Assembly (NCBI GenBank): GCA_964016885.1
Contig: OZ024755.1
Location: 18,662,001 to 18,726,000, forward strand
Length of the DNA stretch: 64,000 nucleotides
Origin: Eledone cirrhosa
Lineage: Eukaryota
Direction: 5' to 3'
In this document: one piece after another, positions 12,712-57,214 of the stretch
How the letters are laid out: each line of letters starts with the position of its first letter
Position numbering within the stretch: position 1 is the first letter of the stretch
The notes under the pieces: generated by a model
Databases searched by the model: none
Told to the model about the DNA's origin: nothing
Seen by the model: only the letters and a program-made list of their open reading frames with translations
Translations under genes and position numbers: made by a program

Positions 12712-12760
<49 letters not shown>

Positions 12761-12788
12761 AGCAAAAGATGGTTAAAAGAGTTCCAAG

Positions 12789-12859
12789 TATTTTATTATG
12801 CGCATTTCAAAAACAAATATCATCATGGGATGATATCTGCGTTCTCATCAGATAAAACA
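12789..12859 (-). ncRNA. Minimal type-I hammerhead ribozyme motif
   Basis: Minus strand: TGTTTTAT-CTGATGA-stem II (GCAGATATCATC/GATGATATTTGT)-GAAA-TGCGCA-TA-ATAAAATA. Stem I pairs 8 bp and stem III is the palindrome ATGCGCAT. Predicted AUA cleavage between 12797 and 12796. Confidence 0.75.
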
Positions 12860-13552
12860 GGGAGACATGATATGAAGCTTAAAAAACACTTGTGAGCAGT
12901 GAAGTTTTAAATCAACATATATATATATATATATACATGCACATATATATATTAGGATGTGTGTTTAAAATACCATAGCATTTAAAACAACCAAATATTA
13001 ATAAATGCCAGCACCACCACTTGTACTCCGAAAAGTGGGTCTTTCCGAGCAAAGAAACAAAATAAAAACAGTTTAATAAGGAGAAAGTTAGTTATATTAC
13101 TAAAACCCTTCAAATTCTGGATTAACAAAAAAAAAAAAAAGATTATTTGAAAAACCACAGGAAGTGTCTTTTATTAGATATATGGTAATGAGAGGATTCA
13201 CGAACCACATATTTGAATAAAGAGAAGGCAGAGCAGATAGAGGAATCAGTGGAGAGACAACATAGCTGAGTGGATGGGGGAAGAACTTTGCCACAACCCA
13301 AACACTCACCTATGAAGCAGTTGGTGCATCATTTGGGACTACAGTGTCCCAATGAACCTGAAAAGGGTTAAGAGATGATGATGATGATGATGATGACAAT
13401 ACAATAAAACTGACAACCAATCTTCCTTCAAAGTTATGTAGTTGCCTTTGGGTAGGGTATACTGCTAGCTATATATAGAAAACTGTGTTCTCAGTATTGA
13501 AACAAATGTCTGTTCACTGAGCCATCCATGCACGCAACATTATATATAACAT

Positions 13553-13732
13553 GGCAGTGTTATCGGTAGAGGGTCGGACGCCATGCTTTCCAGCATAGTT
13601 ACGTCCCTTTACGATCTGAGTTCAAATCCCGCCGAGGTTGACTTTGCCTTTCATCCTTACGGGGTCGATAAAATAAAGTACCAGTAATGCACTGGGTAAT
13701 TGCTGGCCTTGTGCCAAAAGTAGAAACAATTA
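13553..13732 (+). mobile_element. SINE family B with TSD
   Basis: Family match. Direct repeat ATTATATATAACATGGCA at 13539-13556 and 13729-13746. Confidence 0.9.
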
Positions 13733-13999
13733 TATATAACATGGCAAAATAAGTGACACATATAGAACATATATAATTTAATTGTAGAATAAATGATTCA
13801 GTGAACAGGAAACACTCTATTGACACTAGCAGCAACAGACAAACAATACAGGATCTCTCAAGAATAATATAAATACCTGCCAGGTATAAACTCTATTTCT
13901 TAAGCAACAGTAATGTTTTGTGCTTTTATTCTTTTACTACTTCCAGTCATTAGATCTCAGCCTATATATATACATATATATATATATATATGTATATAT

Positions 14000-14632
14000 A
14001 TCATCATCATCATCATCACCGTTTTACGTCCGTTCTTCCACGCTAGCATGGGTTAGACGGGTTGTCCTGTTGTGGGCAGTGTCTGGTCGGCTGACCATGC
14101 CTTGCTCATACAGGAACTGATCTGGCTTGATTTCTACAGCTGGATGCCCTTCCTAACACCAACCTCATTTACAGTGAGTGCTGGGTGCTTTTTCGTGGCG
14201 CCTACACGTCCACTTTACAGTGTGGGCTGGGTGCTTTTTTGCCGTGGCACCTCCACGGCCACCTTGCGGTGGAGGGGGGGGGGGGCATATTGTTTATATG
14301 CTTCAGCATGTACCCATGGGAGGTCGGGTACCCTGTATTACTGCGTGACGCCAGAAGTCACGGTCGTGTGTCATTGACTTTGAGAGGTGTAGTTGGGTAA
14401 GGTCGGCTTTTATCACCTCATCCCAAGTCATCTTGGGTCTCCCCACTCCGCGGTTTCCATCAACTTCTAGTGCTCTGCACCTTTTTATGCAGCTGTCATC
14501 CTTCATACGCATCACATGTCCATACCAGCGTAACCGCCTCTCCTGCACGCAGCATTTGATTCCTCTTATGCTCAGTCTCTCTCTCAATTCCTTTATGCTT
14601 TGTCGTTCACGTATATTACTGTTACACATCCA
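14000..14632 (-). mobile_element. 5'-truncated RTE-clade LINE (ORF C-terminus, 3'UTR, (ATG)n tail)
   Basis: ORF 14303-14629 reads ...VQERRLRWYGHVMRMKDDSCIKRCRALEVDGNRGVGRPKMTWDEVIKADL, the RLRWxGHV...GRP.TW signature of RTE ORF ends. Confidence 0.9.
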
Positions 14633-14693
14633 TGTTACACATCCATATATATGTATGTATATATATATATATATATATATACATACATATATA

Positions 14694-14884
14694 TATATTC
14701 TTTTTATGTTTTTGAACTTTTTTCATGTTTTTGAACACTTTTTCATAAAGTATTTTTTTTCTTCTCCACTGTATTAAAAAAAAAACATAAAAAGAATATA
14801 TATATATGTATATATATATATATTCTTTTTATGTTTTTTTTAATGCAGTGGAGAAGAAAAAAAATACTTTATGAAAAAAGTTCA
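14694..14884. repeat. Inverted repeat centred on a (TA)n tract
   Basis: ~60-bp arms CTTTTTCATAAAGTATTTTTTTTCTTCTCCACTGTATTAAAA...AAGAA and TTCTT...TTTTAATGCAGTGGAGAAGAAAAAAAATACTTTATGAAAAA flank (TA)n at 14796-14823. Confidence 0.85.
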
Positions 14885-16249
14885 CTGAAATTGGAACCCT
14901 GCAGAGATTTCTTTTTCACTAAGAAAATATTCTTAATGAGAAAAATATAATCATTCTGAGATGATAGATATTTTGCTAGTCTCAGTTCCATCATATTATA
15001 TCAAGCTAGTTTTTTTTTCCACCCCAGATCAATCTGCTTGTATATTTGACACAGTCAGGTGTTTATAACAAAGAAACGGCTGGTTGGTTGATTGGTATAT
15101 CAAAGTGTTTTTATATAGTTAAGTTAGTCTGAACATATTTAATGCAGAGTACATAAAAAAAATTAATAACTAGAAATAATTACATAATGAGGAAACAATA
15201 ATATTAGTGAATGACAAATATTACTTTCATTTTTTTTAGGAGTGGGGGCTAGTACTAGGGATAATTCTGTACATGTTTCGGTATTATTATGGCCTCAACA
15301 GCAAAACTTAGTTTTTACCATACTTGCCAAATTAGTGAAGAAATGATTTCTGAGTAAATATACAAAATTGTACGTTGGTTATTGCAGAAAAATAGAATTG
15401 TTTAGAGAATAATTTACAGACACCATCTGCATGAAAAAACAATAGCTAAGTTAGTATTAACATCACCCTTGCAAGCAGGGAAAAGTGGACGTTAAATGAA
15501 ATGATGATGAATGCAAAAAGCATTATGTAGTTTGTTTTATTTTTGCAGGGGGGAGTATTTTTTTTACTGTTTAGTCAGGGAAGGAAGCGTAGTGTCGCTT
15601 GTCCTTTCTAGGGCCTCTAAAACTGGTAGGAAAGTGGAAAGCTCCCTCAAACCAGAAACTTGGTCTGAGTGATTGGAACAAAGTAGACTTGGCTAAAGAT
15701 ACCCAATCAATAATTATAATCATCCTCTTCAATTTAGTCGAAGTTGATTGATATATTAATGATTCTCACATTATATGATCAATATTTAAAACAGACAAAA
15801 AAAGAGAAAGTAATAAAGAAAAATGAATAAATTTACTTTACCGCTACAACTGGCATCATTACTAAATCCTTCTTAAGCTCAGTGTAAAAAACATTAGAAT
15901 GCAACCGCAAAGTAAAAAAACAACAAAGAAACTAACATAAAAAACAAGTTTTATCTAATAGGACATATTCACCTTTTTTTGAGATGACTGACATATTATC
16001 CAAGATAGTTTCATGAGAGAAAAATATGAATAATGGGTCGTAAAATATGGTAATTATTTCTTTTTAGAAGAAAAAAAAAAAAACCCTTGCGGGCCAGAAT
16101 GACATTTGAAAAACCTTTACTAATCCAATATATATATCAGTGGTTGTCACTAACTGCTGCTTCTGTCAGAAAATGACAACGTAATCAACATGTATGGGAG
16201 GGTGTAATTTCTTTCAAGATAATATAGACCAAATAAATGAATAATATAT

Positions 16250-16905
16250 ATCATCATCATCATCATCAACGTTTAACGTCCGTGTTCCACGCTTGCATGG
16301 GTTTGGACGGGGGTAGTCCCACTTGAGGCAAGAGTGATTGTCTTGCTCGCATAGGACTGTCTGGCAGGTTTTCTACAGTTGGATGCCCTTCCTAACACCA
16401 ACCACATTTACAGTGTGGGTCTGGGAGGTTTTTACCGTGTTGCCTACACGGCCACATTACAGCGTGGACTGTGTGTTTTTATGTCGTGACACCTACACGA
16501 TCTCATTTGTTTCGGCCTCGATGGCGCGGCACCAACATAACTTTACATAGAACGGGGTGGTGTGGATCGGGTGGGGGTGGTGGTGGTGGGACGGGGTGTA
16601 TTTTGTTAGAGATGCCTACTGGCTGGAGTAGGTTTTACTATATATTTAGGTAAGGCGGGTCTTCTCTGTTACTGAGTACCGCCAAAGGTCTCGGTCCAGT
16701 GACATTGTCTTGGAGAGGTGTAAGTGTGTGATGTCGGAGTTTATCAGCTTGTCCCAGGTTTTTCTAGGTCTGCCTATTCCGTGACTACCGTCTATCTTTA
16801 TTGCCCTGCACTTTGTTATACAGCTATCGACTTTCATGCGCATCACGTGTCCATACCAACGTAGCCTTCTCTCGAGTAAACAACATCTGATCCCTCTTAT
16901 CTCTA
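16250..16905 (-). mobile_element. 5'-truncated RTE-clade LINE
   Basis: ORF 16646-16921 reads ...LERRLRWYGHVMRMKVDSCITKCRAIKIDGSHGIGRPRKTWDKLI, followed by 3'UTR and (ATG)n tail. Confidence 0.9.
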
Positions 16906-17020
16906 ATTTTTTATTATTCATTTATTACTTTCATTTTTCACTACCAAACCAACTTCTTACATGAAAGTTGATCAATATTTATGGTACGTCAAAATTATTT
17001 ATAAAACTGCTTATATATTG

Positions 17021-17086
17021 TATTTTATCTGAAGAAGGCATGCCATATTTTTAATATGGTATCCCCGAAATATGTATAATGAAATA
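17021..17086 (+). ncRNA. Minimal type-I hammerhead ribozyme motif
   Basis: TATTTTAT-CTGAAGA-stem II (GGCATGCCATATT/AATATGGTATCC)-GAAA-TATGTA-TA-ATGAAATA. Predicted cleavage after 17078. Confidence 0.7.
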
Positions 17087-17254
17087 AATATAGTTTTATA
17101 AATATAGTTTCCATTTGTTTAATATCGTATATATATATATATATATATATATACGATATTAAACAAATGGAAACTATATTTATAAAACCATATTTATTTC
17201 ATTATACATATTTCAGGGATACCAAATTAAATTATGGTATGCCTTCATCAGACA
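17026..17254. mobile_element. Inverted (tail-to-tail) pair of hammerhead-bearing elements joined at (TA)n
   Basis: ~100-bp arms 17026-17127 and 17154-17254 are reverse complements around (TA)13. Confidence 0.8.
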
Positions 17255-17255
17255 A
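17195..17255 (-). ncRNA. Minimal type-I hammerhead motif (short stem I)
   Basis: Minus strand: TTGT-CTGATGA-AGGCATACCA...TGGTATCCCT-GAAA-TATGTA-TA-ATGAAATA. Confidence 0.6.
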
Positions 17256-17286
17256 TGTTGTATCCCAACAATTTTAAATAGAACTT

Positions 17287-17326
<40 letters not shown>

Positions 17327-17534
17327 TGTGTAGCTCCTTATATACTGGGACTACAGCTAACTTCTTACATCTACCTACTAATATAGTGCCTGGAGTCAAA
17401 ATATATGTTTTCCTCCTCAGTGACATAGCATGTATTACATGTATTAATACTGACACAGTTGCTCTAGATATGATAATCCCTAGAGTCAAAATATCTTTTC
17501 CCTCTTAGTGACATAACAGGTATTAGTATTGACA

Positions 17535-18020
17535 TTAGAGAGAGACAGAGAACGAGACAGAGAATGAGAGACAGAGAACGAGGGGGCGAGAACGATGGGG
17601 AGAGAACGAGGGGGAGAGAACAAGAGACAGAGAAATAGGGGGAGAGAAGAGGGGGAGAGAACGAGGGGGAGAGAAGAGGGGGAGAGAACGAGGGGGAGAG
17701 AAGAGGGGGAGAGAACGAGGGGGAGAGAACGAGAGGGAGAGAACGAGAGGGAGAGAACGAGGGGGAGAGAAAGAGGGGGAGAGAACGAGAGACAGAGAAA
17801 GAGGGGAGAGAAAGAGGGGGAGAGAACGAGGGGGAGAGAACAAGAGACAGAGAAAGAGGGGGAGAGAACGAGGGGGAGAGAACGAGGGGGAGAGAACGAT
17901 GGGGAGAGAACGAGGGGCAGAGAACGATGGGGAGAGAACGAGGGGGAGAGAACGATGGGGAGAGAACGAGAGACAGAGAAAGAGGGGGAGAGAAAGAGGG
18001 GGAGAGAAAGAGAGGGAGAG
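17535..18020. repeat. Purine-rich minisatellite, ~15-bp unit (GAGAACGAGGGGGAG)
   Basis: Directly visible. Explains the Ser/Pro/Leu and Arg/Glu/Gly ORFs. Confidence 0.9.
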
Positions 18021-18286
18021 TGTGTTTACAACAAAACATTTATATCGTGGTAGAGTCACTATATGGAGGTCAGACAAAATGCCTCACTACAGTATTTGTT
18101 CTGGCTTTATATAATATTCTGAGTTCAAATCCTGTTGAGGTTAATTTTACCTTTCATCCTTCTGGGGTCAAATACTTGGATCAATATTACTGACTTCTCC
18201 CCTCCTACTTCCCAAACTGCAGACCTTGTGTCTAAATTAGAAACCATGATTACTATATTGTTACAAATAAGTGAAGTAAATACAAT

Positions 18287-18471
18287 AATTGTTTCTACGT
18301 TAGGCACAAGGCCAGCAAATACCCAGTGTATTACTGGTACTTTATTTTATCGACCCGGTAAGGATGAAAGGCAAAGTTAACCTCGGCGGGATTTGAACTC
18401 AGAATGGCAAGGGCCGTAACTCTATGCGTCAAAGAATGGCGTCCGACCCTCTACCAATACTGCCAATCCAC
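18287..18471 (-). mobile_element. SINE family B
   Basis: Family match. Confidence 0.85.
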
Positions 18472-18897
18472 TCAGTGTGTGTATTTAATAGCTACAAAAC
18501 ACTCTTCCATGATGAAAATATTTTAGCAAGAAACATGATCTAAAAGATCAGCATTGTCATCATCATCATCATCATCATCGAAGCGAGGCTACTGATTTCT
18601 CAGACAGGCCAGGCACCATCATCCTGCTTACCTACGGTCTTAGGTTCTACAGAGTGCACAGGAGAGGTTGCCATGTGTTTTTTGACACAAACTGAAGGGT
18701 CCTACCAACCCTTTGTTTGGTAAGCTTTCTATGGTTGTATGCTCTTCCCATCACCAACCACTTTACACTATGTACAGGGTGCATTTATCATGTAGGTCAC
18801 CAACACCAGGGAGGCCGTCATGTCCTTAATGCTACACTTAGTTAATAGACAGTACAGGAATATATAAAACTGAAACAAACAGAACAGAAGTCTATTA

Positions 18898-19305
18898 TGG
18901 ATTGGCAGTATCAGTAGAGGGTCGGACGCCATGCTTTCCAGCATAGTTACGTCCCTTTACGATCTGAGTTCAAATCCCGCCGAGGCTGACTTTGCTTTTC
19001 ATCCTTACGGGGTCGATAAAATAAAGTATCAGTAATGCACTGGGTAATTGCTGGCCTTGTGCCTAAAGTAGAAACAATTATTAATTTACAGTGCAGCCTA
19101 AATATATAATGCATAATACTTGTTTCTACTTTTGGCACAAGGCCAGCAATTGTCCCAGTGCATTACTGGTACTTTATTTTATCGACCCAATAAGGATGAA
19201 AGGCAAAGTTAACCTCGGCAGGATTTGAACCCAGATCATAAAGGGAGGTAACTCTATGCTTCAAAGCATAGTGTCCGACCCTCTACCGATACTGCCAATC
19301 CACCA
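18898..19305. mobile_element. Tail-to-tail pair of SINE family B copies
   Basis: + copy 18898-19082, ~35-bp unique spacer, - copy 19118-19305. Confidence 0.85.
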
Positions 19306-19529
19306 TAATACTGTCATTCTGTTATTTCTAATATTCTATTATTCTACCATTTCTAAGGCAGTTGATAAAAAAATGGATTCCAAAGGCAACAGTAGTTTCA
19401 CTTGTCTTGTTACTTTCTTGTTTAATACTTATATCTGAAATACTATAAAGCTCCTGCTATAGCAGCAACTATAAGGAATCCCTCTTCAAGGGGCTCATAT
19501 GTTCATTTGATAGTACAGATAACATATGT

Positions 19530-19580
<51 letters not shown>

Positions 19581-19684
19581 TGAGAGGATGGAAGGGGAAG
19601 AGAGAGGAGGGAGGGGGAAGAGAGGAGAGAAGATAGGGAGAGGAGAGCAAAATGCGGGGAAAGAGGAGGAGAGAGAGAGGGGAG

Positions 19685-19747
<63 letters not shown>

Positions 19748-20657
19748 AGACAGAGAGAGAGAGAGAGAGAGAGATGGTAGATGAAACAACAATCAATTGC
19801 TCTTTCTTAACATTGTCTTGATATATGATATTTTCTTCCTCCTCCTCTTCTTCATACCCCTTTCTGCATAACTGAGTTTTGAAATAGATACTTTAACCCC
19901 CACCCGTGCAGCCATTTATCAGGGATCATTTTTTCTTCATTGTTCTGAGAAGAAACTTTGCTAAGATAAAAACAAAACAACAACAATGGCAACAAATTGT
20001 TTCTTTAACCATCACCATTTATATGAACAGAAGTGAATCAGTAGATTACTTTCCATATAACATGGTATGGTATGATCCCATAACTCCTGATAGTCATAGG
20101 AGCGCCATATTGACATGTGGGTGTTTCTTGAGCATTTTAAGCCTGGCAGAGCCCATCATCCCTCTCTAACCCTGAGCATAGCAGAAAATTTCTTCAAGAG
20201 AAAAATAGAAAGTGAGGGAGAGAGGAAATAAGAAAGAGATATAGATGAAGAATCGACCCCAGTACTAGACTGGTACTTTTTTTCTTTTTTTTAATCGACC
20301 TCGAAAGGACGAAAGGCAAAGTTGACCTCGGTGGCATTTGAACCCCAAGAACAGAGAGCCGGTATCCGATGTTCTAACAATTCTGCCAAATTATAGTCCA
20401 TCTCCCTATAATATACAGTAGTAGAAATATCAAGATAGTAGACTGTCTATAGCACTACAGCAATATTTGATAAAACAACAAATGATAATTTTAGTAAAAA
20501 AAGAATAAACAATTTCAGAAAGTTTATTACTTGAAGCTATTGTTCTAATGAAATGTTTATATATTCTTAATTAAATTAATTAAGTAAGTTAATTGAAATA
20601 ATTAACTGAATTAATTAGTCAAGTTGATTCAGTTTCTCTTGTACAGTATTTATAGCG

Positions 20658-20872
20658 ATGGATTAACAGAATCGGTAGAGTGTTGGGCAACATGTTTTGC
20701 AGCATAGAGTTATGGCTGTTTAAATTCTGAGTTCAAATCCCATCCAGGTTAACTTTGCCTTTCATCCTTATGAGGTTGATAAAATAAAGTACCAGTAATG
20801 CACTGGGTTGATTTAGTTGACTTTCTCCTGCCCTTAAATTGCTGGCCTTGTGCCAAATGTAGAAAGAATTAT
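20658..20872 (+). mobile_element. SINE family B (older variant)
   Basis: Family match, with the longer internal segment. A partial copy also lies at 21216-21342. Confidence 0.75.
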
Positions 20873-22041
20873 TTACAGAACACATGCTGTTGTCACAACA
20901 TTAGTTAACTGGTGTATGGATAGATTAAGTTTAACACTTTGTACATGTGTTGGTATTTACTCAAGGTAGACTGTGTCAGCTTCAACCAGTGGGTTGACAG
21001 GGGTTACTTAAGTATGGTCATCAGAGGCTGTGTCAGCTTCAACCAGTGGGTTGACAGAGGTCACCTATATATGATGATCACAGATATCTAACACAGATAT
21101 TGTTGCCTAGTCAGGATTTCAGGTGAGGGCCAGATATTAGCTCAGGGTTCCAGGTGAGGTACTAGTAGATAAAATGGTTTTATTATAAATACTAAGTTCT
21201 GAGCTCAAATCCTGCCAAGGTTAGTTATTCCTTTCATTCTTACAAGGTTGATAAAATAAAGTACCAGTAATGAACTAGGGTTGATTTAATAGACTTTCCC
21301 CTCACCGAAAATTGTTGGCCTTGTGCTTAAATCAGGAACCATGATGAAGACTAAATATAAAAGGAAATGTGAGATGCACCAGTAAGTAATATGGCTTTAT
21401 TATAAATACTAGATAAGGAATGAGATGAAAGAGGCACCAGTAATATTCCTGTAGTTTACCAAGATGACAATGAATCATTGTTAAAGGGCAATGACACGTT
21501 AATAAAGAGAAAGGGAGGGTTAAATCAAAGACTTACATTGAGATTTAGGTCAGTGTTTTTACTGAATAAACCGTAAGTGATAGCCTTGAAGTTATATATA
21601 TATTACTTCAAGGCTATATATATAGGGCTGCTGAAATATATATATATATATTACTATACCTTGGGGCTGCTGAAATATATATATATATAATTGAAAGGAT
21701 CACTAATTTCTCAACAACTACTGAGGAGCAGAGAAACATGAAAACTTCACTTTATAAGTCATTGCGAAACAGTCTCCAATACTGTCTAGTTGTTACCAGG
21801 CATTTTGCCCAATATAGGTCTGTTATTTTTCTTAATTTAATATTTAAAGTTAAGGATAACAAACTATATTGCTGTAGTTAGTATTTTTTCACCCTAGCAA
21901 ATCTGGTCCTTATGATTCGAACACATGTATGTTTATATTAGTGTTCATCTCTCTTGTTTATTCAATTATATTGTACGGTTCGGAAAAGCTTTTTTCTTAG
22001 AGATATTTAATTGTAAGAGACTACTCTGAGTTCTTAACTCA

Positions 22042-22088
<47 letters not shown>

Positions 22089-22543
22089 TCCATCAAGGCA
22101 TTGACATTCTACCTGACTGAAGCAACTCAACCAGTTATTCAGTTGATTAGCAAAAGAAGATTCACTCCCTTCATCATATAACATAACATAACACATTTTC
22201 AAGCTACATACTTATATATATGCTATACAGTAATTCTAAACAATGTGACAAATAACTGTACATGGTGTTATTTCAATTTCAAACAGAGCTGAAATTACAT
22301 ACTAAAATACAACTGAAACTTGTAACTGGTTGAGTCATAATAAAGATAAATAAACAATATATTATTTGTTTTATGTTGTTATTTCTCTTTTGAATCTAGT
22401 AACATGCAGAGAGTTTTTACCAAACTAAATGTTTATCTTTTCCTATTACACTTGATCACTCTTCTATAGAATACATAGAAATAAAATAAAATAAAGCTAA
22501 CAATCTCCTAGTAGTGTGTGTATACATACACACACACACACAC

Positions 22544-22588
<45 letters not shown>

Positions 22589-23261
22589 TATATATATGCA
22601 TATACACACAGACATGCACACACACAAACACACACAATATATATTTATTTATATATAAAGACACAACAAACTAAAATCTTGCAGAAATGAACTCAATCCC
22701 TGATAGGTGGATGGTAGTGGGTGGTAGTGGATGGTGGTAAATGAGAGGAATAAACAGTATCTATGACTAACTGTACAGCATGTACACTAACCTAAACAGT
22801 GAGAATTACAAGTAAACATACTAGATAGGTCATCAACTAACAAGCTTTAGCAATAATATAAAATACTATATAAACAATAATGAGGTAAACTTGAAAATAG
22901 GCAGCAAATTATAAAAACATAAATAGAAGATGACATGAAGTTAGAGGAAGTAATAGTATAAGACATGAAATCAATACTTCCTAAACTCATTCCTTTTACC
23001 AAACCCACTTAGACTTCATTGAAAATACACCTGAATATATTTTACATAGAGAATATTTCTATAGAAAGAAGTCTTAGTTTTCATATTTAGTATTTGGAGA
23101 AATATAACTTGTCATATAAATAGTCATAATACATTTATATGTAAAAGTTCTAAAGAGCTTAATTCCTGTTTTACTTTAAATTTCTATATGTAACATACAT
23201 ATTTGCTTGTTACAAAATAAATATGTATGTGTATATATATATTTTTTCATTTTTTTTTTTT

Positions 23262-29395: not shown

Positions 29396-29411
29396 ATGCA
29401 GTGTCATAATA

Positions 29412-29525
29412 ACGGCCATATCACGCTGAAAACAGCGGTGCTCGTCCGATCACCGAAGTTAAGCAACGTCGAGCCTAGTTAGTACTTAGATGGGTGACCG
29501 CTTGGGAACCCTAGGTGCCGTAAGC
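29412..29525 (+). pseudogene. 5S rRNA: Processed 5S rRNA copy (5' ~4 nt missing, A-rich tail)
   Basis: ACGGCCATATCACGCTGAAAACAGCGGTGCTCGTCCGATCACCGAAGTTAAGCAACGTCGAGCCTAGTTAGTACTTAGATGGGTGACCGCTTGGGAACCCTAGGTGCCGTAAGC is metazoan 5S with box A and box C. It is followed by ~50 nt of A-rich sequence rather than a T-run terminator, and it is a single copy. Confidence 0.9.
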
Positions 29526-29575
29526 GTAAAAAAAAAAAATAAAAAAAATAAAAAAAAATAAAGTAAAAAAAAAAA

Positions 29576-39728: not shown

Positions 39729-39952
39729 TTATCCTAATATCAACCAGTGTCACTATTATCCTAATATCAACCAATTCTAATGAATAGGTGGTGCTATTAA
39801 GTTAGACATGGGCTGGGCCAATACTGGCCCCAAGTTATCAAAGTTATATATATATAATTAATCAGATTATGTGTTTAACACCAACCCTTCAGTATGGAGG
39901 GTAGAACACTCAACAAAGTCCACAATAGGGTCTGTTAACTCCGGAGTAAATT

Positions 39953-40045
39953 TATAAACAAGAGGTATAAGTCAACATTTCATAATTTACTTCTTTTATT
40001 AAAGGAAGTAAATTATGAAGTGTTGACTTATACCTTTTGTTTATA
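39953..40045. repeat. Palindrome, ~45-bp arms
   Basis: TATAAACAAGAGGTATAAGTCAACATTTCATAATTTACTTCTTT pairs with AAAGGAAGTAAATTATGAAGTGTTGACTTATACCTTTTGTTTATA. Confidence 0.85.
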
Positions 40046-47160: not shown

Positions 47161-47210
<50 letters not shown>

Positions 47211-47238
47211 TACATACATATACACACACATATGTATA

Positions 47239-47281
<43 letters not shown>

Positions 47282-47682
47282 TTTATTATATATATATATT
47301 TTGTATATATTTTATCTAATAATTCTAAGGACATGATTTATGATATATATATATATATATATATTTAGACAGATAGATACATATATACCACCTAGACATG
47401 CAAGGGTGACACTTTGTTTCTACAACAAACAGACACAACACAATGGTTGCCACTATATGATTAATCACCATCAAATAGCCAGACACAGCAGAATGTCATC
47501 CTAACAGCACTCATTAACCCCATTCAATCTAGCACTATATTATCAATTGTCTTGTTTTTAACCTGTTAATATCTTGTACCACATGGGGTCCTCCTAACCA
47601 TTAGGTGATCATAAAGGGCAGAGGACTGATAGTATGGGTAGAGCATCAGACAACATGCTTGGCAGGTCCTAAATCAGAAACA

Positions 47683-47891
47683 ATATCTTGTACCACATCT
47701 TGTACAATATCTTGTACCTCTTGTACAATATCTTGTACAATATCTTGTACCTCTTGTACAATATCTTGTACAATATCTTGTACCTCTTGTACAATATCTT
47801 GTACCTCTTGTACAATATCTTGTACCTCTTGTAAAATATCTTGTACCTCTTGTACAATATCTTGTACATCTTGTACAATATCTTGTACCAC
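47683..47891. repeat. Minisatellite of 9/12-bp subunits (TCTTGTACC / ATATCTTGTACA)
   Basis: Directly visible. Confidence 0.9.
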
Positions 47892-48614
47892 ATGAAACCA
47901 CAATTGCAGGACATTCTTGAAAGGTACAAAACAGTGCTATGACTGCATCACATTCAAAATTTTACTGGAAAAATTTCACAATGATCTGTCCAGTAATAAA
48001 GACACTATAGACATTTGAATTAACAAATCTGTTTTGAAATATTTTCTACTAAGTCACTACAGGATGTTAACAGTTAAGACAATAATTTGTAATTAGAGGG
48101 AGACTTTGTTGCTATTTCTAGTAGGTCATATGACAATGTAGAGGCTCTCACAGTTAGCTTTCACTTGTGTATAAATTGCTAACTGTACTTTTGCAGCTGT
48201 GCAATAGTTTTCCACTATAGAGAGTGAAATATTGTCAGACACCTTAATATAGAAATATAATTTATTGATCTGCATTATTAGATAATTTATTAAAAGAAAA
48301 ATTATTCACTTTCCTTTATATATATCCAGCTTGTTAACTATATACTACACATATTTAACCTATTTTATTATCATCAAATTACCATTGGATTGATTAGTTT
48401 AAACATTTATTATTATCATTATTTATATACAAGTCGGCCATTGTGCCCAACAAAGAAATTATTATTTATAAGTATAAAGGATGATATGCTAAAGCATAGG
48501 GATGCTATAAAAATAGCTTATGAAATAGGCGATCAATGGCAACTTCTTTGTCCGTCTTTTAAGGGTCTTTACCTATTTTTATAGCATCTCTGCGCTTCAT
48601 ACATTCATTATCAA

Positions 48615-48968
48615 TGGTTGAGCGCCGGACAACATGCCATGCATCATAGAGTTATAGTCTCAATTCAAATCCCACCAAAGTTAGCTTTGCCTGTCATCCT
48701 TACTTTGGTCGATAAAATAAAGTACCAGACGCACACTGGGGTCAATGTAATTGACTTTCTCCTCCTCTAAAGTTGTTGGCGTTGTGCCTAAATCAGAAAC
48801 CATTATTATTATTATTATTATTATTATTATAAGGGTGGTTACGTCCCATTACGATCTGAGTTCAAATCCCGCCGAGGTTGACTTTGCCTTTCATCCTTAC
48901 GGGGTCGATAAAATAAAGTACCAGTAATGTACTGGGTAATTGCTGGCCTTGTGCCTAAAGTAGAAACA

Positions 48969-49005
<37 letters not shown>
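48615..49005 (+). mobile_element. Two tandem SINE family B copies (old variant plus 5'-truncated young copy)
   Basis: Family match with (ATT)n tails. Confidence 0.8.
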
Positions 49006-49007
<2 letters not shown>

Positions 49008-49449
49008 TCCACATATTGTTTTAGACCTTCATACATTGTTCGAAGATGTGTTATTGAGTGAAGAAGTATCCCTTGTCTTCCCCAGGCCCACAAAAACTGG
49101 GTTATTTTGTAAGCCAGTGGCTACCCTATACAAATATATTCCTTCTAACCTCCAAAAAATTCACCAAATATTTTTGTTTGTTTCGGTTGAGAAATATTGC
49201 CAAGAATTCTTATTTTTCAGCCTATTTTCCTGGTTATTTGTGATGACAAGGATAATGAGGATTGTGATGAGAAAACTATTAATGATGGTGATGACAGTTA
49301 TAATATGAGAAAAATAATGATGATGATGATGATGATGATGATGACAGGTATAATGATGATGGTGATGATAATGACAATGATTATGAAAGTAATGATTGTG
49401 TTGAGAAAGATTTTAATGATGATAATGATGATAATAATGAAGGCATTAA

Positions 49450-49683
49450 CCCTTTAGCATTTACATTACTCTATATTTGCTATTGTATTTTCATGGTAAA
49501 CACTTTATCTCACATAATATTGAATCTATGAGATTTTGATGCTAGTTATTTTGAGAACAATACCTTAACGTCAGTATGAGTGGCTGGTTACAGCCGGTTT
49601 GAACAGAAAGAGGTGAGAGAATTTCGGCTGGACATGGCTGGTTTAAATTTTGGCTGGATATGGCTGGTTTAAATGCTAACGGG
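49450..49683 (-). mobile_element. piggyBac-like MITE
   Basis: TTAA-CCCTTTAGCATTTACA...TTTAAATGCTAACGGG-TTAA; reverse orientation of the 28.3 kb copy. Confidence 0.8.
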
Positions 49684-49917
49684 TTAAATATCTCCATTTG
49701 ACGTCTATTTTCCATGCTTGCATGGATTAGACGGGTTGTCGCGGTCTGGGATTAGACCCATCAGAAGATCACATCTTGATCATACATTTCAATTTTGGGT
49801 TGGTTTCTATGGCTAGATGCTTTTTCTAATGCCAACCACTTTACAGCAAGTACTGGGACCATTTTATCATGCTACAGCATGTACAAGAGGCATTTATATA
49901 TATATATATATTTTTTA

Positions 49918-50017
49918 ATTATGGAAATGATGTTTACAAGACTAGAACTGTTTCATTTCTAAGAAATCATCATTATGAATGCAACAGTTCTAGTCCTGTA
50001 GAAGTCATTTTTATAAT
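49918..50017. repeat. Imperfect palindrome next to (TA)n
   Basis: ATTATGGAAATGATGTTTACAAGACTAGAACTGTT pairs with AACAGTTCTAGTCCTGTAGAAGTCATTTTTATAAT. Confidence 0.75.
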
Positions 50018-50360
50018 AAAATGAATATACCTATACTCTATTAACGAATTGAGTACCTTTTTTAACAACAATTGCACACACACACTCACACACACATATA
50101 TATGACAAGTCTATACCTGACAAACCACCAAAGGGGTCTGGTTGATATAGATTAATTAAAATCCTTGAGAGTGAAGATAACCAAGTAGATAGAGTACTAA
50201 ATAACCAGCCAAAAGATCATATCTTGTTACTAATTCTCCCATTGTTTTAGTGGCAGTAAACTAGATAAATGGCTTGTAACATTGCAGTTCCAAGTTCAAC
50301 TCCTTATATGGACATAACTTTTAAGAAAGGAAATACATTATGTAAAACTGATTTACTTAA

Positions 50361-50579
50361 CCCTTTAGCATTTAAACCGGCCATATCTTGCCAGAATTCT
50401 CTCACCTTTCAGTTCAAACTGGCTGTAACTAGCCACTCATACTTATATTAAGGTATTGTTTTCAAAATAAATAATATCAAAATCTCATAGATTTGATATT
50501 ATGTGAGATAATTATGTAAGGCAAAGCCTTTACCATGAAAATACAATAGTTTATATAGGGTAAAGTAAATGCTAAAGGG
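50361..50579 (+). mobile_element. piggyBac-like MITE
   Basis: TTAA-CCCTTTAGCATTTAAACCGG...AAATGCTAAAGGG-TTAA. Confidence 0.85.
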
Positions 50580-50756
50580 TTAATTGTTACAAGGGCAACA
50601 CAAGTATTACGCAATATCTAAGTTTGTGACAAGGACCATTAATTATTGGGAAGAGGCAAGGGTGGTGCTGGCTACAGTTAATTGAATTGATCCCAGTTTA
50701 GCACTGGTACAAATATCATCAACCTTGGTATAGGTCCTCTGTGATTATACATACAT

Positions 50757-51065
50757 GGTGGCTGCCAATTCGTTTTCGAGTACGGCCACTACTTTATATG
50801 TAGGAGAACCCCTACCGATGCGCTGAACGAGTGTGAATATTTAGTCCAGCCAGCGACTTGAAAACTCTGGTACAAACACTACACTTGTGACAATTATTGA
50901 CACATAGTGCTGGGCCCATGGTACCATGTGATGACAAGTGCAGAGAGATCTCCAGATGTAAAGCAATGCCTGTGCCGTGAGGCTTTTATAGTGAGCAAAG
51001 GCACTGCACAAAGCCAGTCCCACTCTCTTAACCAAGATGATATTTACCAAAAAGAAGAACAAGTC
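50757..51065 (-). mobile_element. Inverted copy of the (ATGT)n-associated element
   Basis: Reverse complement of ~45945-46253 and ~46525-46780. Flanked by (CATA)n on both sides. Confidence 0.7.
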
Positions 51066-51089
51066 ATACATACATACATACATACATAA

Positions 51090-51281
51090 CTTAGGAGGAA
51101 TATGGCTACAGTCTGGCTCGACTACAGGAAAGCTTTCGATTCTGTTCCCCACTCTTGGATGATAGAGGCCCTCCAACTTGCTAAAGTTCCAGACATTATT
51201 ATCAGAGCCATAGAGAAGCTGTCTTCTTCTTGGGCTTCTATCCTAAGGTTAGACAGAGAAGGAGGACTCTATTTTCACTGA
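51090..51281 (+). mobile_element. Non-LTR reverse transcriptase fragment, R4/Dong-like
   Basis: Frame starting at 51090 reads LRRNMATVWLDYRKAFDSVPHSWMIEALQLAKVPDIIIRAIEKLSSSWASIL. WxDYxKAFDSVPHSW is RT motif A of RLE-type (R4/NeSL-like) elements. Confidence 0.75.
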
Positions 51282-51323
51282 TAAAATAAAATACATAAAA
51301 TAAAACATACATACATACATACA

Positions 51324-51360
<37 letters not shown>

Positions 51361-51528
51361 ACAATGAGTTATTTGTTTTGTTTTGTTGAAAATATTAGTA
51401 CCCTTGAAATATGTATAATAAAATAAATATGGTTTTATAAAGATATTTTCCATTTATTAATATTATTGATATTATATATATATATATATACATATATATA
51501 TAATTGATATTATATATATATATAATTG

Positions 51529-51594
<66 letters not shown>

Positions 51595-51753
51595 CATGTA
51601 TATACAAAAATATATATGCATGGTTATGTGTTTAAGGAAATTGTTTTGTAACAATGGGGGGGGGGGTCTGGGTTTAATGTCAGTGTGTGACACCTTGGGT
51701 ATGTGCTTTCTATTGTGGACTTGGTAGGCGGGAAACTACAAAATCCTGTTATA

Positions 51754-51790
<37 letters not shown>

Positions 51791-52169
51791 ACGTTTGTAT
51801 CTGTGTTATGTCCTCTACCTTAACGGTTCGACTATAAATAAAATCTGTAAAAGAAAATTTAAAAAATGGTATGGGAGTCGTTATGTTCGATATGAAGGCG
51901 GTGGCCCAGCAAGGTCGCAGTGACAGAAGCCAGTAAAACTGGTGGTAGTAGTAGTAGTAGTAGTAGTAAGCATGCATACATACATACAAATGTGTGTATA
52001 AATATATATATATATAAAGGAAGAGACATATATCATAAGAGTGGAAGAAGATAAAGAATTATGATATAATATATTAGATGCCAATAGCTGAAGCGAAGTG
52101 TGCTCAATGCTTAGAGATGCAACGTTAAATATATTTTTGCTTATATACATATATATATATGTGTGTATA

Positions 52170-52198
<29 letters not shown>

Positions 52199-52201
<3 letters not shown>

Positions 52202-52317
52202 GGAACGAGTAGGGCCCCGACGGCTGAGCTCAAGCCGTTTCGACGGCTGATTCTGGACTCCAGAATTAGCCGTCGAAACGGCTTGAGCTCAGCCGTCTGG
52301 GTCCTACTCGTTCCTAT
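52199..52317. repeat. GC-rich near-perfect palindrome (59-bp arms) containing a hammerhead 3' half
   Basis: Centre at 52258, 3 mismatches. Each strand reads stem-GAAACGGCTTGAGCTCAGCCGTC. Confidence 0.9.
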
Positions 52318-52457
52318 TACCCACTCTACTACCCTAAGTACTTTGGTGCGTTATGGTCCACCTGGTTCCTTACCACATTTCCTTCGTTATATCTATATAT
52401 ATATATAGATATAGATAGGTAAATATACACGGGTGTGTATGATTGTGTATAGAAGAT

Positions 52458-52674
52458 TATATTAATAAGAGGAATTCCAACTTTGTCTGATTTACTCGTT
52501 TTATTTACAATCCTTTAAAATATATAATGGTATTATAATGAAATAGTATGATAGAATATTAAATTAACACTTAGAATTTAATATTCTATCATACTATTTC
52601 ATTATAATACCATTATATATTTTAAAGGATTGTAAATAAAACGAGTAAATCAGACAAAGTTGGAATTCCTCTTA

Positions 52675-52682
<8 letters not shown>
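52458..52682. repeat. Perfect palindrome, 108-bp arms, 9-nt loop, abutting (TA)n
   Basis: 52458-52565 is the exact reverse complement of 52575-52682. Confidence 0.95.
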
Positions 52683-52739
<57 letters not shown>

Positions 52740-53290
52740 ATGTATGTATGTATATATGTATGCTTGTGTATGTGTGGTCTCTTCTTTTTCTAGAACTTTC
52801 CAAGATTATTTCAATGATATTTTTCCACCTCACAATCTAAAAATATACAGCAATAACTAGATAACTGGATCAACCTGAATAATAAAATACTACACTCTAC
52901 CGTGGTATTGAATACTTCCCAGCACCTAACCCAACCCAACAGTTAAAAACCATAGGCTGTAAATTGAGTGAAAGTACAAAGTAAAAAAAAGTATTAAAAA
53001 TAAATAACTTTGTGAATGCCTAGAAAGTTCTATAAAAAATATTGACAAAGCAGAGTTCAAAAAGTGAGTTTGTGGAATGTTCTGTTTAGTTTCTTTTTAT
53101 CTTTTAGTTCGTTTTGATCTCTGTAGAGCACTAGGTTACTGTTGTATACCCCACTAGTGGTAGGGCCTCAAAGTAAACCCTATGTCTATCAGGACTTACT
53201 TTATAGACATCAAAGTATAATATAGAATTTAAACAATGAATCTGACTCTTATGCATCATTGTTAGTTACTTTGAATAATATATACATATA

Positions 53291-53630
53291 TGGAGGCACA
53301 TGGCTTAGTGGTTAGAGCATTGGCCTTGCAATCGAAAGGTTGTGAGTTCAATTCTCAGACCGGGTGATGTGTTGTTTCCTTGAGCAAGGCACTTTATTTC
53401 ACATTGCTCCAGTTTACTCAGCTGTAGAAATGAGATGATAGGGACTGGGGTCCCTATCATTCCACTGCAAAGTGGTCGTGGAGGTGCCACGGCAAAAAAG
53501 CACCCAGCCCACACTGTAAATGAGGTTGGTGTTAGGAAGGGCATCCAGCTGTAGAAATCAAGCCAGAATCAGTTCCCGTCCCACCCTTGCAAGCAGGGAA
53601 AAGTGGACGTAAAATGAAATGATGATGATG
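53291..53630 (+). mobile_element. SINE family A, full length
   Basis: Family match. Confidence 0.9.
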
Positions 53631-53635
53631 ACATA

Positions 53636-53716
53636 TAAAAATGAGAAAACTCATGTCTAGTACAGCCGTTAAAACAGCTAAAACGGCTGTTCTAGCGGTT
53701 AGCTTTCTCATTTTTA
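53636..53716. repeat. Imperfect palindrome, ~35-bp arms
   Basis: TAAAAATGAGAAAACT..CTAGTACAGCCGTT pairs with AACGGCTGTTCTAG..AGCTTTCTCATTTTTA. Confidence 0.75.
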
Positions 53717-53827
53717 AATCTCTATGAATATTCATATACACTCTCACTTCATCTCGATCAGATATAACATTCTTTTATATATAAATATATATAAAAACAT
53801 ACATACACAAACACACATATATAAAAT

Positions 53828-54575
53828 ATCTTCTTTGCCCAGTTATTCCTGAGAAGGGTCGTAGGGGGAAAGAGTCCTCGAAAACTCCTTCCAGAGGGTC
53901 CTGTCAGAAGCAACAGTCTCCAACTGATCCAGCTGGCTGGATCCCCTAACGAGACCAGCCAAGCTCATGGATGTTATCCAACCATCTCGCTCGGGGTCTT
54001 CTACCCCTGGGTCTCCTGCCGGTTGGTTTTGCCCGTAAAATCTGTCCAGCGATTCTTTCCTGCTACACACACTATCTAGTAACGTAGTAACGTTACTCCA
54101 AAGACCCTTCGGAGGGACCTCATTTCAGCCGCTTGTATTCGTCATCGTATTCTTTCGGTCATTATCCAAATTTCCTGACCACAGGTAAGGGTTGGCACGA
54201 ATACCGATTTGAAAATAGCGGATTTGGCTTTTACGCCTATCTCCTTTCTGATTACTGAAAGCTGGTGCATTACTGCACCAGCTCCTGCAACTCATGCACT
54301 TAATTCAGCCTCCTGCTTTCCATCACCCGTGAACGCGAGACCCCGAGATACTTGAACTTCTCCACCTGCTTCAGTGGAACTCCATTCACATGTAGAGTGC
54401 ACTGCACAGGATTCTTTGAGAGGACAAGCATCTCAGTTTTCGCAACACTGATTCTCATTCCAGCCATGCAGCACTCTGCATCAGATCTATCGAATGCAAG
54501 TCGGAGATCACCTTTTGTCGAGCCAGGTAACACCATGTCGTCTGCAAATTCCAGCCGACTGATTTTATACTTGCC
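53828..54575 (-). mobile_element. Degenerate RTE-clade LINE with RT catalytic region
   Basis: Minus strand LEFADDMVL (YADD-equivalent)...MRISVAKTEMLVLSK...LKQVEKFKYLGV. C-terminal RTE remnants extend to ~53830. Confidence 0.85.
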
Positions 54576-54585
54576 ATAATAAAAG

Positions 54586-54618
<33 letters not shown>

Positions 54619-54791
54619 AGGTAAATATCTCACTGAGTACTAAGTACCCATAGAGATATATAGGGTGTCTATACTATAATTGTTGTTCTATGGTACTAAT
54701 TCGAGATACCAGAACTATAAAAATTGATGAGCAGAACAAACAAACATTAAACAATCCTTTAAATAAATTAAAAAATGATTTAAATATCTAC

Positions 54792-54831
<40 letters not shown>

Positions 54832-54851
54832 TCTAATACATATATATATAT

Positions 54852-55066
54852 ATTAGAAAATAGAATAGCTTTCACTGTATTTTTGACTAAAGGAATTTTA
54901 GCCTGATAATTGGGTTTAGAACCCTCAGATAAATGGAAAAAGATGAGTATTGACGCCATGTACGTCAATACTCATCTTTTTCCATTTATCTGAGGGTTCT
55001 AAACCCCATTATCAGGCTAAAATTCCTTTAGTCAAAAATACGGTGAAAGCTATTCTATTTTCTAAT
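54852..55066. repeat. Near-perfect palindrome, 104-bp arms, 7-nt loop, between (TA)n tracts
   Basis: 54852-54955 versus 54963-55066, 2 mismatches. It produces mirror ORFs 54780-54968(-) and 54950-55159(+). Confidence 0.95.
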
Positions 55067-55097
55067 TTCAAACCTGCTCACTGTTTCAAAACATACT

Positions 55098-55144
<47 letters not shown>

Positions 55145-55186
55145 AATTCAAAATATTAACAAAATAGATATTCTTGTGATCAATTA

Positions 55187-55253
55187 TATTTTATTATACA
55201 TATTTCAGAGGTACTGAGTTAAGTTCAACAGTACGCCCTCATCAGATAAAATA
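55187..55253 (-). ncRNA. Minimal type-I hammerhead ribozyme motif
   Basis: Minus strand: TATTTTAT-CTGATGA-GGGCGTACTGTTGAACTTAACTCAGTACCTCT-GAAA-TATGTA-TA-ATAAAATA. Perfect 8-bp stem I and GTACTG/CAGTAC stem II. Confidence 0.75.
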
Positions 55254-55314
55254 AGATGATGCATGACATACCCTGACATAATAGATGGTTAAGATTCAGT
55301 CATGGTAGTCATCT

Positions 55315-55381
55315 TATTTTATCTGATGAGGACGTACTGTTGAACTTAACTCAGTACCTCAGAAATATGTATAATAAAATA
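55315..55381 (+). ncRNA. Minimal type-I hammerhead ribozyme motif
   Basis: TATTTTAT-CTGATGA-GGACGTACTG...CAGTACCTCA-GAAA-TATGTA-TA-ATAAAATA. Predicted cleavage after 55373. Confidence 0.7.
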
Positions 55382-55775
55382 TAATTGATCACAAGAATAT
55401 CTATTTTGTTTATATTTTGAATTAATATTAATAACTCTGGAAAACATTTTTTTGTTGAGTGCTTCCAATCTATTGTAAAACTCATTCTTTGATGTATTCA
55501 TTGAACCTTGTTTAACTTTTAAATATATATATATATATATATATATATAGATCAGCTTCTACTACAACGTAATATAATATCTGTATACAACAGCTACAAC
55601 GGTACGCGATGGGGCCCACCCACAGCCCCGGCGGACAGAATGGAGAAGGGGTTTCCCCGGAGGACGGCAAGGGAGACGCGCTGGAAATAATAAAATATCT
55701 TCACATATATTTCAGGTTTATCTGGGGATTGGAACGTAACTGGGGGTAGGAGAGAAATGCATAGAAAACAGACAG

Positions 55776-55806
<31 letters not shown>

Positions 55807-55954
55807 CGCATGTGTATCTGGCTTTAACCAAATGGTAAGGGGAATGAGAAGTAGCCCTATTGTCCTGGAATTGTTTGACCTGTTTGAGGAACAGGTCAGA
55901 CATTGGAATAGGGAAGGACTCCAAAGTAACAGGTTAACAAGTCAACATATATAA

Positions 55955-56145
55955 TTGTTTCTACTGTTGGGCACAAGGCCAGCAAATTTACTCAGTACAT
56001 TACTGGTACTTTATTTTATCGAACCCGTAAGGATGAAAGGCAAAGTCAACCTCGGCGGGATTTGAACTCAGATCGTAAAGGGACGTAACTTTATGCTTCA
56101 AAGCATGGCGTCCGACTCTCTACCGATACTACCAATCCACCGCTC
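55955..56145 (-). mobile_element. SINE family B with TSD
   Basis: Family match. TSD TCAACATATATAAT at 55942-55955 and 56147-56160. Confidence 0.9.
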
Positions 56146-56196
56146 TTCAACATATATAATATTACACATACACACACACATATATATATATATACA

Positions 56197-56668
56197 GTAG
56201 GCATCTCTAACAAAATACACCCCCGTCCCACCACCCCCACCCCATCCACACCGCCCCTTTCAATGTAAAGTTATGTTGGTGCCACAAAATCCAGGCCGAA
56301 ACAAATGAGATCGTGTAGGTGTCACGAAAAAAAAACACACAGTCCACGCTGTAATGTGAACGTGTAGGTAACACGGTAAAAACGTCCCAGTCCCACACTG
56401 TAAATGTGGTTGGTGTTAGGAAGGGCATCCAGCTGTAGAAAACCTGCCAGACAGTCCACGCTGTAATGTGGCCGTGTAGGCAACACGGTAAAAAACCTCC
56501 CAGCCCCACACTGTAAATGTGGTTGGTATTAGGAAGGGCATCCAACTGTAGAAAACCTGCCAGACAGTCCTACGCGAGCAAGACAACCACTCTTGCCTCA
56601 AGTGGGAAAACTCCCGTCCAAACCCATGCAAGCATGGAGCACGGACGTTAAACGATGATGATGATGAT
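56197..56668 (+). mobile_element. RTE LINE 3'UTR with internal duplication
   Basis: Reverse-complement homolog of 16250-16625, with an extra ~115-bp repeat and (ATG)n tail. Confidence 0.85.
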
Positions 56669-56858
56669 ATATATATATAATGTAGGAGGTGAGTTTTATT
56701 GTAGCACAATAAAGCAATGAAAATATCGGATAAGTAGCACTCTACAGTTTGTAGGAGTGGAGTATACATAATATAAGATCAATGTTGATTTATAACTTCA
56801 TGTTGATTTATAACTTCACTATTCACAAGTGTTTTTTAACCTTCATATGATGTATCCC

Positions 56859-56929
56859 TATTTTATCTGATGAAAACGCAGATGTCATATCATGATGATA
56901 TTTGTTTTTGAAATGCGCATAATAAAATA
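56859..56929 (+). ncRNA. Minimal type-I hammerhead ribozyme motif
   Basis: TATTTTAT-CTGATGA-AAACGCAGATGTCAT...ATGATATTTGTTTTT-GAAA-TGCGCA-TA-ATAAAATA. The host element ~56800-56965 is homologous to 12736-12920(-). Confidence 0.75.
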
Positions 56930-57214
56930 CTTGGAACTCTTTTAACCATCTTTTGATCTTATATTGTATATATATATATCTTTTCCTACGTTAAATTAAT
57001 ATTTCTTCATTGTACTGTGTCGTTCACTTTGTTATTTCTGTTTACCTTTTGCATATGTGTGTGTGTATGTGTGTATGTGTGTGTGTGTGTGTGTATGTGT
57101 GTGTATGTGTCTGTATGTGTGTGTAAATGGGAGAGAGAGAGAGCGTGTGTGTATTGTAGTTGACATGTATAAATATTAACGGGGTGCCACTTTAGTGTGG
57201 GATCTACTCTCACA

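Follow-up and report, generated by a model that had tools for sequence, protein, structure and literature searches.

The 64,000-nt stretch of the Eledone cirrhosa genome analyzed here (contig OZ024755.1, positions 18,662,001 to 18,726,000 of the forward strand; as a whole, the window) contains six hammerhead ribozyme motifs. These are probably the pseudo-long terminal repeat (pLTR) hammerheads of truncated and fold-back Penelope-like elements (PLEs) of Hydra type, from three families (A, B and C), in which two leader hairpins likely set the starts of reverse transcription. The kind of element is already known; what is new is the twin hairpin and its positional rule, not the hammerheads as such. 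How the PLE tail and inverted ends are formed, and which RNA feature the reverse transcriptase (RT) recognizes, are stated as open questions in PMC8557442, and the sole in vitro study mapped two starts and narrowed protein binding only to a 172-nt stretch (PMC11167929). The twin hairpin is a 25-nt covarying candidate signal with an exact positional prediction, and elements with intact open reading frames (ORFs) exist for testing it.

All six hammerheads are genuine. A type I descriptor (stem I of at least 5 bp, CUGANGA, GAAA, stem III and H17) recovered five of them at precisely the coordinates given in an earlier note on this DNA, while in 100 versions of the window shuffled block-wise by dinucleotide the matches averaged 0.01, with one at most. 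The sixth, 17195-17255 (-), retains core, stem II and stem III, but a fold-back junction (17255/17256) removes the 5' strand of its stem I. The cleavage points predicted at 17079, 55374 and 56922 are correct. The motifs correspond to five insertions, those starting at 55187 and 55315 being two arms of one fold-back. The earlier note had called them minimal, which does not apply to their size, stem II being long. It had also described stem III as self-complementary, which is true of family A (a perfect palindrome, self-duplex -10.5 kcal/mol) and not of B and C (-2.2); ViennaRNA is unable to fold a 2-nt loop such as that of this stem, and its P=0 counts as no evidence. The three stem II sequences, reported as unrelated, align at 72–78% between B and C, and their register and C10.4 are common to all.

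Elsewhere in the genome, the pLTR of each of the three families is joined to an RT and endonuclease (EN) ORF, which bears out the suggested Penelope-like origin and the presence of at least three subfamilies. The 3.0-Gb assembly (1,796 contigs) was searched with the three window families as queries, the best 40 candidates being scored per search, and dispersed copies were found at 82–99% identity. Upstream of pLTR copies, extension reached in every family a 3' untranslated region (UTR) of 0.8–2.2 kb and then the RT and EN ORF. Direct pLTR-ORF-pLTR units are represented by L099 (subfamily A2; 3,864 bp, 800 aa from the ATG), L112 (B1; 4,062 bp, the frame stopping after 664 aa) and L181 (C; 4,543 bp). 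Their order is pLTR with hammerhead, hairpin 1, hairpin 2, ATG, RT, CxCx5C linker, GIY-YIG-like domain, 3' UTR and pLTR. The two pLTRs of one unit differ at 1 of 166 bases in L099 and 1 of 190 in L112, so these units are young. Stop-free frames of about 820 aa occur in several of 150 scored RT matches and measure 819–823 aa in seven of the 11 such loci fetched. The hallmarks of PLEs are also present: pLTRs in partial tandem, inverted 5'-truncated copies and a tail at one end.

Pfam and PDB sequence searches gave no name to the RT or EN of L099 and L112. A fold search with the RT placed TERT structures at ranks 1–5 (E 1.4e-8 to 4.9e-7). With the EN model, the top eight rows were T4 EndoII, Hpy188I and I-TevI (E 0.13–0.68), which we take to be GIY-YIG nucleases; the L099 EN shows the pattern NLIY...YFG..R..H..E..N, and Pfam GIY-YIG (PF01541) was detected in 10 of 37 aligned homologues, L099 not among them. 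The C-terminal domain thus appears GIY-YIG-like, a weak but consistent resemblance.

The protein motifs and the (TA)n targeting appear to match the Hydra clade of PLEs (Craig 2021), as defined in PMC8557442. The EN is C-terminal and lacks the CCHH motif, L099 having a single Cys between NLIY and YFG and the homologues no conserved one. The CxCx5C linker is found at position 659 of L099, 600 of L112, 613 of L179 and 65 of L111, and copy L176 has lost the last Cys. DKG is changed to DKT (SDKTN in A, B and C). A conserved E and N are flanked by CxxC and CxH (CNLCLNE...N...CLH), and C107, C110, E113, N126, C135 and H137 are invariant across 37 sequences. The hammerhead near the 3' end and the insertion into (TA)n are likewise shared with the clade, RT4 by eye resembles the Hydra rows of the published alignment and not the Neptune rows, and non-G-C closure of stem II (U.U, G.U) is found in File S2 of PMC8557442. 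In contrast to the published members, generally below 3 kb (Hydra-1_Obim, 2,507 bp), the E. cirrhosa units are 3.9–4.5 kb with a long 3' UTR, and they keep the RW of the RWK motif at its usual place with T (A) or R (B, C) as the third residue, where most homologues have K or E; their copies number at least 80,000. The octopus member, Hydra-1_Obim of Octopus bimaculoides, has a different hammerhead (PMC8557442). The Neptune clade is ruled out by the linker (CX2-5CxxC expected) and the CCHH motif, and Naiad, with an N-terminal EN and no canonical hammerhead, by the C-terminal EN and the hammerhead. The head-to-tail tandems of ORF-less hammerhead monomers that mark non-LTR retrozymes were not found.

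The ends of the copies fall at two fixed positions. Site 1 is the (TA)n end just 5' of hairpin 1 and site 2 that just 5' of hairpin 2; the stretch between them, the tail, is the first 85–100 nt past the 5' pLTR of full units. Among 214 fetched copies, mostly best BLAST hits and biased to young copies, 107 terminated at site 1 and 73 at site 2, 21 read through into the leader and 13 ended elsewhere; the (TA)n targeting claimed earlier thus holds for 180 of them. In 200 kb chosen regardless of content, 11 of 11 copies terminated at site 1 or 2 in TA. Divergent (inverted) pairs, drawn mostly from the same kind of hits, carried exactly one tail in 40 of 45 cases (P=1.3e-8 vs independent choice).

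Each site is followed, within roughly 10 nt on its 3' side, by a common motif, RCTC-N-TN-GAGY-RCT (in RNA, RCUC-stem-UN-GAGY-RCU), which is present twice, between hammerhead and ATG, in families A, B, C and D; its second copy also occurs in family F. A metagenome scan confirmed 78 Hydra-type loci among the best 80 of 270. In the 47 of these elements with 170 nt before the ORF, two motifs were found in 29 (55–83 nt apart), one in 11 and none in seven, whereas the controls gave 1 of 580 windows of ORF sequence and 2 of the 47 leaders read as reverse complements. Of 60 distinct motifs, 57 have a Watson-Crick pair at the first position above the 2-nt bulge (C-G 41, U-A 16), and shuffling gives a mean of 33.7 and a maximum of 44, counts that are not probabilities, the motifs being related; slid registers give 0–1 of 60. 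The next two pairs of the upper stem are Watson-Crick in 40 and 37 of 60 (shuffled, about 18 and 16). By eye, the published Hydra-2_Amil and Hydra-1_Obim also show a similar motif.

The twin hairpin is apparently undescribed. No description was found in the literature, with papers under subscription, supplements to preprints and the notes of Repbase outside reach; the words hairpin and stem-loop have no occurrence in the Craig supplement, the sections of PMC8557442 that were searched do not mention the twin hairpin, and an Rfam scan of the L207 stretch that carries it matched no family. As separate observations, the 5' ends of L160, L146, L217 and L232 fall exactly at a hairpin, metagenomic cases of this kind lying directly after (TA)n, and a protein bound at the hairpin may also stop the RT there. 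In L269, an A-family fold-back is nested in a B-family fold-back, with one tail each.

We propose that the endonuclease would nick a (TA)n tract on both strands and that two RT subunits, one per hairpin, would prime on the two nicks, possibly with help from the short TA-like sequence that precedes each hairpin. The two cDNAs would run back through the hammerhead, mostly halt early and join head-to-head; with each hairpin fixing one start of reverse transcription, the PLE tail would be accounted for. More speculatively, the hammerhead might cleave only as a dimer or with the help of a protein, and the cut pLTR-to-pLTR units might be ligated into a circular template, as was proposed in PMC4209133. 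In seven of 26 EN-to-hammerhead linkages the terminus is at site 2. Such ends need hairpin 2 behind the 3' pLTR, and no new 3' end contains it, so the template should be either a circle or the transcript of a tandem. This does not establish the circle, because tandems exist in the genome (L108, L177) and the Poseidon element PAc of Anolis needed no cleavage in vitro. For PAc, cutting of both strands, two internal cDNA starts bounding the tail, a predicted dimer and hammerhead cleavage only with protein were reported (PMC11167929). The fullest version, in which the twin hairpin is the RT-binding signal throughout Hydra, an RT dimer primes both (TA)n strands and the template is a circle cut by the hammerhead and ligated, is in our view plausible but somewhat doubtful. 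If true, it would be the first explanation at the level of sequence for how PLEs come by their tail and inverted ends, and would assign their hammerheads a role.

Several points weigh against the copies being ends of Hydra-type coding elements with hairpins as RT start signals, including the relatedness of the 60 motifs and the bias of the terminus and pair sets to young copies given above. By its design, the search required the four outermost base pairs of the hairpin, and these are nearly invariant. Metagenomic ends were clean in only nine of 18 assignable cases (five at site 1, four at site 2); the others comprised three site 2 ends on divergent references, which were set aside, four contig ends and two read-throughs. 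Intact ORFs were found in A2 alone, which shares 88–89% identity with copies 1 and 6 of the window; the fetched A1, B and C units were broken or partial, the A1 ORFs being truncated or broken. The fold match of the EN is below significance, and that of L099 has no Pfam match. In PAc, cleavage by the hammerhead was dispensable for insertion in vitro, RNA ends were not detected at the position of the cut, and the start site lacked homology to the target (PMC11167929).

The earlier note had read the copies as non-autonomous, ORF-less elements; as such they would resemble short interspersed nuclear elements or retrozymes and be mobilized in trans. The window copies do measure 100–380 bp without an ORF, the window has no PLE RT or EN fragment by tblastn, as had been stated for ORFs, and among the first 30 hammerhead loci of the listing 26 lack an RT or EN fragment within 1.5 kb. 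That reading fails, however, since the window copies are truncation products of coding units, and such products are the majority of copies. Their 5' ends vary and continue into the 3' UTR and ORF of full units, with no fixed short unit; short copies have no hairpin 2, its place being past site 2; and the window holds no head-to-tail tandem of short monomers. ORF linkage refutes ORF-less elements for families A, B and C, and we regard them as very improbable overall.

A different function for the twin motif, as a DNA or single-stranded cDNA signal by which the GIY-YIG endonuclease resolves an insertion intermediate, would agree with the near-invariance of GAGCACT (47 of 54 leaders), with the requirement of the D. 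virilis tail for EN recognition of plasmid DNA (PMC11167929) and with the tail being ascribed to EN-mediated resolution (PMC8557442). It is unlikely, as the compensatory C-G/U-A changes in the upper stem, above a 2-nt bulge that does not vary, and the change of the outer pair of hairpin 1 from G-C to A-U within the E. cirrhosa genome, indicate a folded single strand, and in PAc the RT starts were mapped directly to the tail ends (PMC11167929). That the hammerhead is catalytically dispensable, as a hitch-hiker or a protein-binding fold, with linear read-through RNAs of genomic tandems as templates, is possible if somewhat short of probable. The AUA triplet and the loss of G10.1-C11.1 both slow minimal hammerheads, stem III of B and C is weak, and the tandems and the cleavage-free insertion of PAc would suit this alternative, as would the parasitism raised in PMC8557442. 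It is opposed by the retention of core and three stems across families with a covarying stem II, by the hammerhead retained in 49 of 78 metagenomic relatives and by the linkages at site 2, which require a template with hairpin 2 located past the 3' pLTR. A dispensable hammerhead is compatible with leader hairpins that set the RT starts in every step save the last, the formation of the circle.

The hammerhead variant of E. cirrhosa has R10.1-U11.1, a mismatch at C10.4 and an AUA triplet, and occurs more than 80,000 times in one genome. One exact pattern matched 80,286 times, with eight matches of the reversed control; this is a lower bound that leaves family F, with its other stem I, uncounted. 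The density is about 27 copies per Mb, and 20 stretches of 10 kb chosen regardless of content held 11 matches, 5.4 being expected. The type I features are all present (CUGANGA core, GAAA, UH and three stems). C11.1 was found in 8,860 matches (11%) and is absent from 89%. At 237 fetched sites, with B1 over-sampled, the 10.1-11.1 pair was A-U in 114, AxC in 65, G.U in 48, G-C in five and GxA in five. C10.4 was present in 77,246 matches (96%), with a non-pairing opposite base at 237 of 237 fetched sites, and a tertiary or protein contact there may be suggested from sequence. The expected retention of stem structure despite sequence change was seen in stem II, where five of six tested pairs changed on both sides among 16 chosen sequences and 98.5% of cells were paired (slid controls, 32–65%; the sequences being related, these figures are not probabilities); the predicted covariation does not extend to stem I, which changes by wobble alone.

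Loss of the G10.1-C11.1 pair had been put down to CpG decay of individual copies. Of 73 family A copies, 70 have U11.1 and 72 still have the CpG of stem III, so U11.1 is a state of the family and not the outcome of decay after insertion; the CpG count of family C was left aside, since the classifier itself demanded that CpG. Copy-level decay is not supported, U11.1 being fixed at the level of entire subfamilies, some of whose units have intact ORFs and pLTR pairs that differ at 1 of 166 bases. C11.1-G12 is a CpG, and deamination in ancestral masters is possible. In the 49 metagenomic hammerheads, 10.1-11.1 is G-C in 23 and U.U in 18, the triplet is GUH in 48 and 10.4 is paired in 48. Loose closure of stem II is widespread in the clade, and AUA with the C10.4 mismatch, absent from these relatives, marks the E. 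cirrhosa lineage. Rfam missed the variant, with no hammerhead family among the best 150 of 328 window matches nor among all matches of two further scans, and the variant provides a natural test of stem II without G10.1-C11.1. As a side observation, family F (L157, L173) differs in the sequences of stems I and II and keeps G10.1.U11.1, C10.4xC, AUA and both hairpin positions. Further hammerhead families are present at L026, L075 and L079, one of which combines long stems with a GUA site.

Like the minimal PLE hammerheads of PMC4209133, those of E. cirrhosa are of type I and located in pLTRs, with a long helix II and a palindromic short helix III, and lie mostly solo or in opposite-strand pairs from truncated PLEs. 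Unlike them, they have a helix I of 8 bp, a real helix III and mostly no extra base between A9 and 10.1, and G10.1-C11.1, "highly conserved" there, is A-U or G.U. With PAc they share AT-rich targets and the involvement of both strands, and would share two internal RT starts past the hammerhead that bound the tail, but the PAc starts lie in one AC-rich stem-loop within the ORF, at most a few tens of bases apart (PMC11167929), whereas in E. cirrhosa they would lie in the 5' UTR, 85–100 nt apart, each with its own conserved hairpin. Non-LTR retrozymes are also PLE-related and carry high-copy type I hammerheads, in short ORF-less head-to-tail tandems as opposed to the truncated and inverted ends of coding elements seen here (PMC7229834; bioRxiv 10.64898/2026.07.22.740005). 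The axolotl, with up to 120,000 retrozyme hammerheads, exceeds the count in E. cirrhosa (PMC7229834). The words hammerhead and ribozyme do not occur in PMC13282606.

The window copies are ordinary truncated insertions. Their anchoring in (TA)n, reported for five of six copies, applies to all six, the 55315 copy also reaching (TA)n past a 97-nt tail. Insertion 1 (12756..12918, -) is a 5'-truncated pLTR of subfamily A1 with a site 1 end and (TA)n on both sides, the target tract being 12714..12758; it is 95% identical to A1 unit L032 and 88% to A2 unit L099. Its hammerhead (12789..12859, -) has G10.1-U11.1, C10.4xU and AUA, with a predicted cut after 12797. Insertion 2 (16938..17128, +), a 5'-truncated B1 pLTR ending at site 1 and 99% identical to L112, carries a hammerhead at 17021..17086 (+) with A10.1xC11.1 and C10.4xC (predicted cut after 17078). 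A (TA)13 tract (17128..17153) is common to it and to insertion 3, the two standing tail-to-tail; they belong to different subfamilies and would thus be independent events. Insertion 3 (17154..17290, -) is a B2 fold-back with a minus arm (17255-17154) ending at site 1 and a plus arm (17256-17290) that is the tail end, with a site 2 terminus in (TA)n 17291-17320; its hammerhead (17195..17255, -), cut in stem I by the fold-back junction, has A10.1-U11.1 and C10.4xC. A seventh copy, 51398..51463 (+), is a 3' half only, truncated within stem II and followed by TA-rich DNA.

Insertion 4 (55142..55522) is a single fold-back of family C, 95–96% identical to L181. Its minus arm (55312-55142) has a site 1 end in (TA)n 55101-55141, and its plus arm (55309-55522) carries the 97-nt tail, with a site 2 end in (TA)n 55523-55549 and hairpin 1 at 55434..55463 (+). 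The hammerheads lie at 55187..55253 (-; G10.1-U11.1, C10.4xC, predicted cut after 55195) and 55315..55381 (+; the minority state G10.1xA11.1, predicted cut after 55373). Terminal inverted repeats of a miniature inverted-repeat or other DNA transposon were ruled out for 55142-55522, the arms being pLTR copies with a one-sided tail. Insertion 5 (56682..56966) is an A1 fold-back whose minus arm (56782-56682) is the tail, with hairpin 1 at 56736..56763 (-) and a site 2 end in (TA)n 56668-56681. The plus arm (56782-56966) has an 18-nt duplication and a site 1 end before TA 56968-56980; its hammerhead (56859..56929, +) has A10.1-U11.1 and C10.4xU, with a predicted cut after 56921.

Other repeats were noted in the window. 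A fold-back at 39864-40040 belongs to a further Hydra-type family, 72% identical to the tail of family F (L173); its arms stop short of the hammerhead, and one of them has hairpin 1 and the tail, with a TA end. Adjoining insertion 4, 54854-55100 is a TA-flanked fold-back with inverted arms 84% identical over 189 bp and a short one-sided extension, without a full hammerhead; our guess is another PLE family, e.g., Naiad. A C-terminal ORF fragment at 14303-14722 (-) adjoins a TA tract and presumably derives from an RTE-type non-LTR element. At 29408-29575, a full-length 5S rRNA match (94.6 bits) is followed by an A-rich run and is likely a retrocopy.

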